Source: Phycisphaera mikurensis NBRC 102666
GTDB lineage: Bacteria > Planctomycetota > Phycisphaerae > Phycisphaerales > Phycisphaeraceae
Reading direction: 5' to 3'
Length of the DNA: 32,000 nt
Assembly (NCBI RefSeq): GCF_000284115.1
Contig: NC_017080.1
Location: 1,170,001-1,202,000 of the forward strand
A model generated the notes under the pieces. It searched no databases, had not been told where the DNA came from, and saw only the letters and a program-made list of their open reading frames with translations. Positions 28,888 through 31,513 of the stretch are shown piece after piece (position 1 is the first letter of the stretch; the number at the start of each line of letters is the position of its first letter). A program made the position numbers and the translations under genes.

Positions 28888-30870
28888 ATGTGTGGAATCG
28901 TCGCCTACGTCGGCTCCAAGCCGTGCCTGCCCGTGCTGCTCGAAGGCCTCAAGCGTCTGGAGTACCGGGGCTACGACTCCGCGGGCGTCGCCGTGCTGCG
29001 TCCCGCCCACGCGGGGGAGGCCGGCCCGGGCGTCACGACCACCGCCCGCGAGGTCGGCCGGGTGATGAACCTGGAGAACGCCATCGCCCCGCGGACCGCC
29101 GGCTTCGCCGGCACCACCGGCATCGCCCACACCCGCTGGGCCACGCACGGCAAGGTCACCCGCGCGAACGCGCACCCCCACGCCGGCGTCACGGCCGAGG
29201 GGCTGACGCTCTCGGTGGTCCACAACGGGACGATCGAGAACTACGCCAGCCTCCGCACGCTGCTGCAGAACAAGGGCGTGACCTTCGCGAGCGAGACCGA
29301 CACCGAGGTCATCGCGAAGCTGATCGCCGACCGCTACGACGCCGAGCCCGAGGGCGGCGACCAACCCTCGCCGGGCGAGAGCCTCAGCGGCTTCATCCCC
29401 AGCACCCGGCTGGAGCGGGCGACCAAGGCCGCGCTCCGCCGCGTGACCGGCGCCTACGCCGTCGCCGTCGTGTGCGACGCCAACCCGCACGAGCTCGTGG
29501 CCGCGCGCAAGGGCAGCCCGCTGATCGTCGGCATCGCGGACAACGGCTTCGTGGTGGCCAGCGACGGCGCGGCCATCGTCAGCCACACCACCGCGGCGGT
29601 GACGCTGGCCGACTACCAGGTCGTGCGGCTCGCCGCCGGGCCCGCGGGTTCCACCGACGCCGCCGGCGAGCGGCACGCCGCCGCCTGGGCCGACCCGCTG
29701 CACACCACCACGCTCGACGACGAGCTGCTCACCGCCGAGGTCGGGGAGCTGGAGATGCAGCTCGAGGAGATCGAGCTCGGCGGCTACCCGCACTACATGA
29801 TCAAGGAGATCATGGGGCAGCCGGAGTCGCTGCGGACCTGCTTCCGCGGCCGCGTCGACACCCGCGACGGCCGCGTCGTGCTCGGCGGGCTCACCGGGCT
29901 TTCGCGGGAGCTGGTCCGTGCGAAGCGCGTCGCGCTCATCGGCCAGGGCACGGCCTTCCACGCCGGGCTCATCGGCGAGTACCTCTTCGAGGATCTCGCG
30001 AAGATCCCCGCCCGGGCGCACTACGCCAGCGAGCTGCGTTACCGCAACCCGATCATCGAGGAGGGCACCGTCGTGGTCGCGGTCTCGCAGAGCGGCGAGA
30101 CCGCCGACACGCTGGCGGCCATCGCCGAGGCCAAGGACCGCGGCGCGCTCGCCCTGGGCGCCGTCAACGTCGTGGGCAGCTCCATCCCCCGCGAGACCGA
30201 CGCCGGCGTGTACCTGCGCGTCGGCCCGGAGATCGGCGTCGCGAGCACCAAGGCCTTCGTCGGCCAGGTCGCGGTGCTCACGATGATGGCGCTCTACATG
30301 GGCAAGCGGCGGTACCTCAGCCAGGCCGACCTCGACGGCTACCTCGCCGAGCTCGAGCGCATCCCCGACCACGTCGCCGAGATCGTCCAGCAGAGCGACC
30401 ACATCAAGGAAGCCGTGGAGGACGTGGTCACCCGCGACAACTGGCTGTTCCTGGGCCGCGGCTACAACTACCCGGTGGCGTTGGAGGGGGCGCTCAAGCT
30501 CAAGGAGATCAGCTACATCCACGCCGAGGGCATGCCCGCCGCGGAGATGAAGCACGGCCCGATCGCGCTCATCGACGAGGGCATGCCGGTGGTGTTCGTC
30601 GCGACCGGCGGCAGCCAGTACAGCAAGGTGATCTCCAACATCGAGGAGGTGAAGGCCCGCGGCGGCCGCGTCCTTGCCGTCGCCGACGAGGGCGACACCC
30701 AGATCGACCGCTACGCCGACCACGTCTTCCGCGTGCCCCCCGTCAGCGAGCCGCTGCAGCCGCTTCTCACCGTTGTCCCGCTGCAGCTGCTCGCCTACCA
30801 CGCCGCGGTGCTCCGCGGCCACGACGTGGACAAGCCGCGGAACCTGGCGAAGTCCGTGACGGTGGAGTAG
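28888..30870 (+). CDS. glmS: Glutamine--fructose-6-phosphate aminotransferase (isomerizing)
   Basis: Starts MCGIVAYVG (N-terminal nucleophile Cys2). Two SIS domains. EMKHGPIALID motif. Canonical C-terminus PRNLAKSVTVE with stop TAG 30868-30870. Confidence 0.97.
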   Translation: MCGIVAYVGSKPCLPVLLEGLKRLEYRGYDSAGVAVLRPAHAGEAGPGVTTTAREVGRVMNLENAIAPRTAGFAGTTGIAHTRWATHGKVTRANAHPHAGVTAEGLTLSVVHNGTIENYASLRTLLQNKGVTFASETDTEVIAKLIADRYDAEPEGGDQPSPGESLSGFIPSTRLERATKAALRRVTGAYAVAVVCDANPHELVAARKGSPLIVGIADNGFVVASDGAAIVSHTTAAVTLADYQVVRLAAGPAGSTDAAGERHAAAWADPLHTTTLDDELLTAEVGELEMQLEEIELGGYPHYMIKEIMGQPESLRTCFRGRVDTRDGRVVLGGLTGLSRELVRAKRVALIGQGTAFHAGLIGEYLFEDLAKIPARAHYASELRYRNPIIEEGTVVVAVSQSGETADTLAAIAEAKDRGALALGAVNVVGSSIPRETDAGVYLRVGPEIGVASTKAFVGQVAVLTMMALYMGKRRYLSQADLDGYLAELERIPDHVAEIVQQSDHIKEAVEDVVTRDNWLFLGRGYNYPVALEGALKLKEISYIHAEGMPAAEMKHGPIALIDEGMPVVFVATGGSQYSKVISNIEEVKARGGRVLAVADEGDTQIDRYADHVFRVPPVSEPLQPLLTVVPLQLLAYHAAVLRGHDVDKPRNLAKSVTVE

Positions 30871-30889
30871 GGGGGGCTTCGACAGGCAG

Positions 30890-30945
30890 GCGAAGAAGCG
30901 GGGAAGCGGGGAAGCGAAGAAGCGGGGAAGCGAAGAAGCGAAGAA
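30890..30945 (+). repeat. Tandem octamer repeat (GCGRRGAA)x7, purine-rich on plus strand
   Basis: Seven contiguous 8-mers: GCGAAGAA, GCGGGGAA, GCGGGGAA, GCGAAGAA, GCGGGGAA, GCGAAGAA, GCGAAGAA. The repeat starts 20 nt after the glmS stop. Confidence 0.95.
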
Positions 30946-30947
30946 GC

Positions 30948-31513
30948 GGCCTGTGCCGGGGCCTGGACACCGGCCTGTGCCGGGGCCTGGACACCGCGTA
31001 CCCGCGTACCCGCGTACTGGGGCCTGGACACCGCGTACCGGGGCCTGGACACCGCGTACCGGGCCTCGAGAACATGGCCTGCGGGGTGCCGGGGGTGCCG
31101 GGGCCTGGACACCGCGGCCTGTGCCGGGGCCTGGACACCGCGTATCCGGAGATGAAGCACGGCCCGATCGCGCTGATCGACGAGGGCATGCCGGTGGTGT
31201 TCGTCGCGACCGGCGGCAGCCAGTACAGCAAGGTGATCTCCAACATCGGCCTGTGCCGGGGCCTGGCCTGTGCCGAGGCCTGGACACCGCGTACCCGCGT
31301 ACCGGCGTACCGGGGCCTGCGGCGTACCGGGGCCTGGACACCGCGTACCGGGCCTCGAGAACGTGGCCTGTGCCGGGGCCTGGACACCGCGTACCCGCGT
31401 ACCCGCGTACCGTACCGGGGCCTGGACACCGCGTACCGGGCCTCGAGAACGTGGCCTGTGCCGGGCCTGTGCCGGGGCCTGGACACCGCGTGGTGGACAC
31501 CGCGTGGGGACAC
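30948..31513 (+). repeat. Modular direct-repeat array built from short modules, interrupted by a glmS fragment
   Basis: The modules are GGCCTGTGCC, GGGGCCTGGACACC, GCGTACC(C) and GGGCCTCGAGAAC(A/G)TGGCCTG. There are 11 copies of GCCTGGACACC at irregular spacing, all in direct orientation. A 42-48-nt module (GGGGCCTGGACACCGCGTACCGGGCCTCGAGAACRTGGCCTG...) occurs at 31040, 31329 and 31417, and the last two copies are 88 nt apart. Confidence 0.9.
31147..31248 (+). pseudogene. 102-bp duplicated internal fragment of glmS embedded in the repeat array
   Basis: 31147-31248 matches 30542-30643 at 101/102 positions (offset 605 nt). The only difference is C30570 versus G31175. The fragment encodes (E)MKHGPIALIDEGMPVVFVATGGSQYSKVISNI. 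It is flanked on both sides by GGCCTGTGCCGGGGCCTG... modules. Confidence 0.95.

Follow-up and report, generated by a model that had tools for sequence, protein, structure and literature searches.

Within the 32,000-nt stretch of Phycisphaera mikurensis NBRC 102666 DNA analysed here (positions 1,170,001 to 1,202,000 of contig NC_017080.1; hereafter the window), an internal segment of glmS, the gene for glutamine--fructose-6-phosphate aminotransferase, is present a second time in a repeat array that follows the gene. We consider this copy, with a probability of roughly 0.6, to be a real, recent and lineage-specific templated insertion, generated by short-homology template switching in a slippage-prone minisatellite and having no evident function. 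Most likely the copy is a harmless by-product of a DNA copying error and not a new genetic system.

The repeat finder reported exactly two copies of the 102-nt repeat, window positions 31147-31248 being a direct repeat of glmS positions 30542-30643 with 99% identity and a start-to-start distance of 605 nt, and the sequence diverges at once beyond both repeat ends. This near-perfect duplicate within a repeat array had been pointed out in a sequence-only reading of the window, and its coordinates, its copy number and its one mismatch were all reproduced here. A match at 101 of 102 positions is far above the chance expectation in 32 kb. Base-by-base comparison placed the lone mismatch at position 30570 in glmS (C) and 31175 in the copy (G); position 30570 falls on the third base of codon 561 (Leu), and the CTC>CTG change is synonymous in the glmS frame, as that reading had also stated. 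The donor segment spans codons 552 (partial) to 585 of 660 and belongs to the second SIS domain (Pfam stretch 519-642), leaving 75 codons on its 3' side, which agrees with the earlier description of an internal piece and not the 3' end of glmS. The features concerned are the following:

28888 to 30870, + strand: glmS, encoding an intact protein of 660 aa (Pfam GATase_6, 1.7e-19; SIS, 5.8e-61, in two stretches)
30542 to 30643, + strand: donor segment, codons 552-585, AEMKHGPIALIDEGMPVVFVATGGSQYSKVISNI, located by the repeat finder and pairwise comparison inside SIS stretch 519-642
31147 to 31248, + strand: copy of the glmS segment in the same orientation, carrying one derived substitution (G at 31175), located by the repeat finder and by comparison with relatives

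The source of the copy could be traced by comparison with related glmS genes. No identical GlmS was found in the protein collection searched, and its closest entries showed 93, 90, 88, and 88% identity (locus L036, 93%; L037, 90%; L038-L042, 88%; L043 and L044, 88%). Readable sequence continues beyond glmS at four of these loci, namely L036, L037, L043 and L038, the last being the best among five near-identical contigs. The copy and the window glmS have GCGACC in common, while GCCACC is found in all four relatives, and the copy is 99% identical to its own glmS compared with 96, 93, 92, and 91% to those of the relatives. Together, the shared variant and these identities indicate that the segment was copied from the glmS of this lineage after its split from the nearest known relative, whose glmS shows 88% nucleotide identity. 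Since all five glmS genes have CTC at codon 561, CTG is the derived state and the substitution occurred in the copy.

In each of the four readable loci a small lipoprotein gene lies 150-300 nt after glmS, and the array, the copy and the HUH-like gene that follows the array in the window are absent from all of them; we took these four loci without the insertion as the ancestral arrangement. The homology between the window and the relatives stops 11 nt past the glmS stop codon. Three of the four relatives have a long and strong hairpin in the spacer (arms of 35-46 nt, 83-90% complementary; RNA folding z -6.3, -6.3, and -10.9), the fourth, L038, having only short hairpins. Compared with this arrangement of glmS, hairpin and lipoprotein gene, the window thus has an array, another gene downstream and a hairpin that is disrupted. 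Among GTDB species genomes (one genome for each of 185,579 species), the array query GGCCTGGACACCGCGTACC identified no array; its 33 hits were all single ones, most of them in Actinomycetota and apparently due to chance. Array words of GGCCTGTGCCGGGGCCTGGACACC found nothing in JGI metagenomes. Neither copy nor array is present at the four related loci and no array was found in GTDB or JGI; the insertion is lineage-specific and probably not the old relic that the sequence-only reading had weighed as an alternative.

The repeat array and the HUH/RAYT-like gene

From the glmS stop codon to the next gene there are approximately 750 nt of non-coding DNA, of which about 630 nt (30890-31520) form an array of 8- and 12-nt words arranged in units of ~88-105 nt. 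The spacer and its downstream border consist of these parts:

30890 to 30947, + strand: purine-rich tract of the 8-nt words GAAGAAGC / GGGGAAGC, ~7.5 copies, from Tandem Repeats Finder (TRF; period 8/16/24) and tokenisation
30948 to 31520, + strand: mosaic minisatellite made of the words A = GGCCTGTGCCGG, B = GGCCTGGACACC, C = GCGTACC(C/G), and E = GGCCTCGAGAAC
31489 to 31554, + strand: degenerate last unit and unique 3' flank (..GGACACTGCATCAGGCCGCAACACCGCAGGGGGCGTTGCTTCTTCG), the last unit grading into the flank in the unit alignment
31622 to 32000, + strand: 5' part (126 codons) of an HUH / Y1-transposase-like (RAYT-like) gene running off the window, recognised by the motif GNHLHLVL

The minisatellite comprises about six higher-order units of the form A B C C c B c E, and the third of these units holds the copy of the glmS segment, with 'A B GCGTATCCG' on its left and the following A word on its right. 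Head-to-tail units with variant copies, small indels between units and TRF periods of 8, 12, 21, 24, 46, and 54 in non-coding DNA characterise the array as a minisatellite or variable-number tandem repeat (VNTR), and this head-to-tail structure with variant units speaks for slippage rather than a collapsed assembly. All array words have the same orientation, no reverse-complement copies were detected, and none of the words recurs in the other 31 kb of the window. When the rest of the array was compared with the window, all matches had E >= 0.1 and no further captured piece was identifiable; since none of the remaining array words has a donor within the window, the glmS piece represents a single capture event. 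The E word was considered as a decayed copy of glmS and rejected, as it aligns instead with AGGCCGCAACACCGC in the unique 3' flank.

No codon-position GC signal was found in the array, where the maximum was 0.78 compared to 0.98 in glmS (0.71/0.46/0.98 for the three codon positions) and 0.94 in the next gene (0.80/0.41/0.94, a clear coding signature). On this basis the array was rejected as coding sequence, and its long open reading frames (ORFs) are a by-product of 74% G+C. This G+C content likewise accounts for two long stop-free frames across glmS and the array that lack a coding signature (27871-31866 on the - strand, 1331 aa antisense; 28890-31646 on the + strand, 918 aa out of frame) and that gene callers could mis-annotate. 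The spacer gave no Rfam match, the glmS ribozyme included, and scans of both strands revealed no promoter-like or terminator-like sites. Folded as single-stranded DNA (ssDNA), the array was no better than shuffles (z -0.49 and +0.68). The spacer RNA had a z of -2.5 (20 shuffles), which is mainly due to the GAAGAAGC words at the 5' end pairing with the complementary GCTTCTTCG at 31546-31554, a long-range pairing seen in the centroid folds. The tract at 30890-30947 corresponds in position to the 5' hairpin arm of the relatives, and the hairpin arms of L036 and L043 also consist of tandem short purine-rich words in the style of the 8-mer tract of the window.

The origin of the array words is indicated by the 3' flank. 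The segment 31489-31554 is homologous to positions 1616-1650 of L001, the locus of the closest homolog of the downstream gene, where GGGGCCTGGACACCGTGCAGGGTCTTGTGCTTCTGG occurs once, ~105 nt upstream of the start codon and at the corresponding position; the L046 homolog has a looser resemblance, GACACCCCTTGCAAGGG, ~110 nt upstream of its start codon. Because the last unit grades into the flank, and because of these positions in L001 and L046, the B word is the 5' boundary motif of the HUH-like gene unit, and the array words are an expansion of a hairpin-like motif, GGGGCCTGGACACCG..CAGGG, located ~100-110 nt upstream of the HUH/RAYT-like gene. A motif GCC(TG)GACACCGTGCAG(C/G)GGTC, which in the window is the B word of the array, is common to window positions 31476-31545, L001 1616-1640 and the loop of the L036 hairpin (11907-11927). 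The latter hairpin follows glmS at a locus without an HUH-like gene, and its loop contains a match of 19 out of 21 nt to the motif, GCC-GACACCGTGCAG-CGGTC.

The gene starting at 31622 has one close homolog (P0001, 82% identity) and falls into a family that, clustered at 50%, counts 2431 representatives and whose full-length members are ~330-380 aa. The window protein contains the HUH motif GNHLHLVL, and across 21 family members N-H-x-H is invariant and Y..LN nearly so; the homologs carry YVDLNP in a region that, for the window gene, lies beyond position 32000. No Pfam match was obtained with the window fragment. In full-length members, the region of the HUH motif matches Pfam Y1_Tnp and that of the tyrosine motif NCBIfam REP_Tyr_transpos, with homolog scores that are consistent but sub-threshold (14-23 bits against a cut-off of 23, and 30-37 bits against a cut-off of 80, respectively), and the best match among solved structures in the PDB was ISDra2 TnpA (E = 0.24). 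Y1 HUH enzymes excise and insert ssDNA at short specific sites. The sequence features of the 31622 gene suggest a distantly HUH/RAYT-like protein, fitting the class 2 branch of the TnpAY1 superfamily, for which Quentin et al. (PMC6006769) gave the signature Y---NP. In subclasses 2.3 and 2.4 an insertion follows the HuH motif, and no associated repetitive extragenic palindromic (REP) sequences were found for subclasses 2.1 and 2.3 (PMC6006769). A search of JGI metagenomes returned no related loci of the HUH-like gene, and a three-way alignment of the regions upstream of these genes, in which L046 aligned too poorly, gave no support for a conserved fold there. The sequence-only reading had recognised the repeat array, but it missed that the next gene is HUH/RAYT-like, that the array is an expansion at the 5' boundary motif of this gene, and that relatives have a strong hairpin at the same position.

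Junctions, mechanism and alternative explanations

At the left junction the microhomology is CG or CGG, i.e., 2-3 nt by choice of the partner array word, and at the right junction it consists of one G together with an imperfect similarity of AACATCG to the AACATGG/AACGTGG of the array word that usually precedes GGCCTGTGCC. The microhomology described in the sequence-only reading is present at both ends, though it is short. With a cis donor 605 nt upstream, microhomology at both junctions and no counterpart in the four relatives, the copy has the hallmarks of a templated insertion, and copy-choice DNA synthesis fits, since the donor lies in cis within 600 bp and in the same orientation, the junctions show microhomology and the host sequence is prone to slippage. 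The following course of events can be proposed. The spacer after glmS would be unstable, holding a hairpin in the relatives and a purine-rich 8-mer tract with a minisatellite here, and the minisatellite would have grown by repeated slippage from the GGGGCCTGGACACCG..CAGGG motif at the 5' boundary of the HUH/RAYT-like gene. During synthesis through the array, at a fork or in break repair, the nascent strand may have detached and re-annealed via CG/CGG to glmS ~600 bp upstream, copied ~100 nt of glmS and then rejoined the array before an A word, aided by the similarity between AACATCG and AACGTGG.

Several observations weigh against this reading. The event is a single one, and its mechanism is read from the junctions, where microhomologies of 1-3 nt are weak evidence in DNA of 74% G+C; moreover, the structure is known from assembled sequence and not from reads. 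Gene conversion between the two copies could keep them alike and make an older copy look young, so that the recent origin claimed in the sequence-only reading, in spite of the shared GCGACC, the derived CTG and the 99% identity, is likely but not proven. The folding of the spacer RNA, somewhat better than that of shuffles, may reflect a structural role, and the adjacent HUH-type gene offers an enzymatic alternative. Finally, a 9/10 direct quasi-repeat is found exactly at the two donor edges, a coincidence that simple template switching does not predict:

30543 to 30552, + strand: GGAGATGAAG, first half of the 9/10 direct quasi-repeat, at the left edge of the donor (quasi-repeat search)
30645 to 30654, + strand: GGAGGTGAAG, second half of the quasi-repeat, starting one base past the right edge of the donor (quasi-repeat search)

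This is the sole 9/10 pair at a spacing of 102 in glmS, and such a pair would be found at the edges of ~0.0017 of random fragments, a figure calculated post hoc.

The quasi-repeat is one of the reasons to ask if the HUH/RAYT-like enzyme itself made both the array and the capture, by cutting single-stranded glmS DNA at CG^(C/A)GGAG(A/G)TGAAG, excising the piece between the look-alikes GGAGATGAAG and GGAGGTGAAG and pasting this 100-102-nt piece into its own target words in the array, which would then be the scar left by many rounds of cutting and joining at the left-end motif of the gene. Such a capture would account for donor edges spaced exactly 102 nt apart and for an array built from the 5' boundary motif of this very gene, a motif that occupies the same place in L001 and more loosely in L046 and reappears in the hairpin loop after glmS in L036. 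It would also be in line with the known activity of Y1 HUH enzymes on ssDNA, and E. coli TnpAREP cleaves and rejoins REP DNA (PMC6006769). However, all family scores are below the curated thresholds, the catalytic Tyr region of the window copy lies outside the window, and the array words, being in one orientation and without hairpins, are unlike known substrates of Y1 enzymes. Furthermore, a 'CG^' rule is trivial at this G+C content, the statistic on the quasi-repeat is post hoc, two other homolog loci are without arrays, and subclasses 2.1 and 2.3 are without known associated repeats (PMC6006769). We therefore regard capture by this enzyme as distinctly improbable. If true, it would be the first natural record of a host gene fragment captured by a RAYT-type nuclease and would offer a way to approach what the proteins of the family's large REP-less branch do.

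Closest to template switching is the idea of filler DNA, in which the fragile array suffered a double-strand break and glmS was copied as filler when end joining or synthesis-dependent annealing mended it. This is a near variant of the preferred explanation in which only the trigger differs, and it draws on the same facts, i.e., short microhomologies, a cis donor within 600 bp in the same orientation, and surrounding DNA that is repetitive and, in the relatives, hairpin-forming and hence break-prone. Since it would leave the same sequence traces as template switching at a fork, and Pfam scans of the window ORFs found no Ku/LigD-like pathway genes, we give it a small share of the probability. 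An artefact of assembly, amplification or library preparation, by which the 102-nt piece and perhaps part of the array would not be in the chromosome at all, has to be weighed as well, because repeat arrays are hard to assemble, no second and independent assembly exists in the collections searched, and the glmS contig of L044 ends 6 nt past the stop codon, which implies that the region breaks assemblies. On the other hand, the overlaps of 1-3 nt at the junctions are far too short for a mis-join in a k-mer graph, and array sequence stands on both sides of the insert, unlike in a chimeric read. The copy also differs from the gene by one base and the units from each other by small indels, whereas a collapse would give identical units, and the window genes are intact with no sign of an indel-ridden consensus in the Pfam scans. 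We consider an artefact unlikely for these reasons, and somewhat more so than filler DNA.

Least of all do we favour a functional element, in which the copy or the array would act on glmS expression as an antisense RNA, a structure in the 3' untranslated region or a protein-binding array. The spacer directly follows glmS, where relatives keep a strong hairpin, and its RNA folds slightly better than shuffles. Nevertheless, the lack of promoter-like and terminator-like sites on either strand and of an Rfam match, the absence of the element from all four relatives and the sense orientation of the copy make this very improbable, and with a single substitution in 102 nt selection could not be detected. 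The antisense pairing with glmS mRNA suggested in the sequence-only reading was likewise not borne out, as nothing in these scans points there. Being non-conserved, non-coding, sense to glmS and outside any RNA family, the copy and its array have no evident function.

If template switching in the array is the correct explanation, the mutation belongs to a type that is already known and only its setting is unusual, and the duplicate by itself opens no major question. It would nonetheless provide a clean bacterial case of a natural templated micro-duplication, with donor, acceptor and both junctions intact and with four insertion-free loci to set beside it; few events of this sort are found before decay sets in. 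The case would also mark the spacer downstream of glmS as unstable in a high-G+C planctomycete lineage in which relatives have strong hairpins, of a dispersed family in at least one (L036), and in which the spacer here borders an HUH/RAYT-like gene. In practical terms, a 102-bp direct repeat may cause mis-assembly and mis-mapping around an essential gene, and it is a potential site of a deleterious deletion. Because the stop-free frame 28890..31646 includes the copy, rare recombination of donor and copy could yield GlmS residues 1-585 fused to 133 array-encoded residues with the last 75 residues lost, which bears out the earlier calculation of 75 lost codons and a frame open to 31646. The product would presumably be inactive and selected against. 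The 602-aa GlmS called in L036 is not this deletion product.

Hairpins of related loci and gene content of the window

The loci of the relatives contain long intergenic hairpins every ~3-4 kb, many of them with one arm of tandem purine words and the other of their pyrimidine complement. In L036 these are at 3656-3803, 5142-5281, 6672-6818, 11828-11983, and 19070-19238, in L037 at 1802-2023, 4195-4324, 6376-6570, 8016-8137, 10165-10295, and 11950-12079, and in L043 at 2786-3039. In some of them the inner stem is GTCAG..CTGAC and a GCA mini-hairpin forms the apex, and a GA-rich subset is related between L036 and L037, two loci of different assemblies. One element of ~130 nt occurs twice in L037 (10150-10310 and 11935-12095), with 94% identity and in opposite orientations flanking a sigma-54 gene; these two copies show directly that the hairpins are repeated elements rather than terminators that evolved locally. 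By their sequences, the hairpins look like a dispersed family resembling miniature inverted-repeat transposable elements (MITEs) or REPINs, or terminators, and matching nothing known. At thresholds of 18 nt and 85% complementarity, 4-6 such elements were counted at each of the L036 and L037 loci, whereas in the 32-kb window only two GC-rich matches passed. The window is without such intergenic hairpins except for the remnant after glmS. No captured gene pieces were found in the hairpins of the relatives.

In L036, glmS (9816-11809) is called as two proteins of 62 and 602 aa and the phosphoglycerate kinase gene (5449-6656) as two overlapping pieces, which suggests frameshift (indel) errors in this 1.34-Mb assembly and not real truncations. 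Sample ERZ23498712 contributed both L044, a contig of 2014 nt with the 88% GlmS that stops 6 nt after the gene, and L001, a separate contig of 2173 nt whose left 1.3 kb is of much lower G+C; this may reflect an assembly break at a repeat after glmS in that sample, or a chimeric L001. The nearest named GlmS relatives are metagenome-assembled genomes of Phycisphaerae/Planctomycetota. Upstream of glmS in the window, a gene for an extracytoplasmic function (ECF) sigma factor (27849-28889, - strand) and an RskA-type anti-sigma gene (26956-27870, - strand) are divergent from it; a sigma gene adjoins glmS in L036 too, whereas the remaining window is not syntenic with L036. The window also carries gene content typical of planctomycetes and in agreement with an origin in the Phycisphaerae, namely two DUF1559/N-methyl (type IV pilin-like) proteins, a PEP-CTERM protein, a BNR/sortilin-like protein, and GH2 family domains (4000-4905, 13653-14549, 7028-7786, and 1695-4019).

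Comparison with known systems

The two ~100-bp near-identical direct repeats, one coding and the other in non-coding DNA downstream, recall the template and variable repeats of diversity-generating retroelements. Unlike in these systems, the single mismatch (30570/31175) is C/G and not at an adenine, the 'target' would be the core of a housekeeping enzyme, and no reverse transcriptase domain was detected in Pfam scans of the ORFs with coding signal within the window. A CRISPR array would show regularly spaced identical repeats of 23-47 nt with unique spacers of similar length. Here the A+B repeats are spaced by 24, 144, 149, 100, and 99 nt and separated by DNA that is repetitive too, with the 102-nt glmS piece as the sole unique stretch, so this candidate was rejected.

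With Tn7 integrations at attTn7, the 3' end of glmS, the locus shares its position immediately downstream of the gene and a lineage-specific gene that replaces the ancestral neighbour. However, such an insertion is expected ~25 bp past the stop codon, whereas the duplicated piece is internal (codons 552-585) with 75 codons remaining downstream of the donor, and no Tn7-type ends or tns genes are visible in the window, the HUH/RAYT-like gene being the only downstream gene visible up to position 32000 where tnsABCD or an integrase might be sought. Since the copy is an internal piece of the SIS domain, a duplication of the att or Tn7 type does not fit. A host gene fragment beside an HUH-type gene is also seen with IS91/ISCR elements and Helitrons, but those capture sequence contiguous with their ends by read-through, while the fragment here lies 605 bp off and inside an array, and the neighbour is Y1/RAYT-like and not a Y2 rolling-circle transposase.

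A parallel is also offered by clusters of REP sequences, bacterial interspersed mosaic elements (BIMEs) and REPINs beside RAYT (TnpAREP) genes (the 'REPtron'), as the window has a mosaic array of short words beside a distant Y1 HUH relative and the words derive from the flank of that gene. The words differ from such elements in being non-palindromic, in a single orientation, without a GT[AG]G foot, and not dispersed, and the adjacent gene, although distantly RAYT-like, scores below the cut-offs throughout. Accordingly, the absence of reverse-complement copies together with the ssDNA folding, and the confinement of the words to this array in the window and in the GTDB and JGI searches, led us to reject the palindromic and the dispersed character of REP/BIME elements, respectively. 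Bacterial intergenic minisatellites and VNTRs, such as those of the mycobacterial interspersed repetitive unit (MIRU) type, are more similar, being non-coding and lineage-specific with head-to-tail variant units that contain sub-repeats, although the array here is built of nested mosaics of 8-12-nt words, apparently at a single locus, with a captured gene fragment inside.

The capture itself compares best with template switching and templated insertions, i.e., replication slippage or copy-choice in bacteria and, in eukaryotes, fork stalling and template switching or microhomology-mediated break-induced replication (FoSTeS/MMBIR) and filler DNA of the polymerase-theta type. The case differs in being a single natural event, in having a mosaic minisatellite as its host, and in donor edges at a quasi-repeat that models of template switching do not require. 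It is alike in its nearby cis donor in the same orientation, in the 1-3 nt of microhomology accompanied by imperfect homology, and in its occurrence within repetitive, structure-prone DNA.

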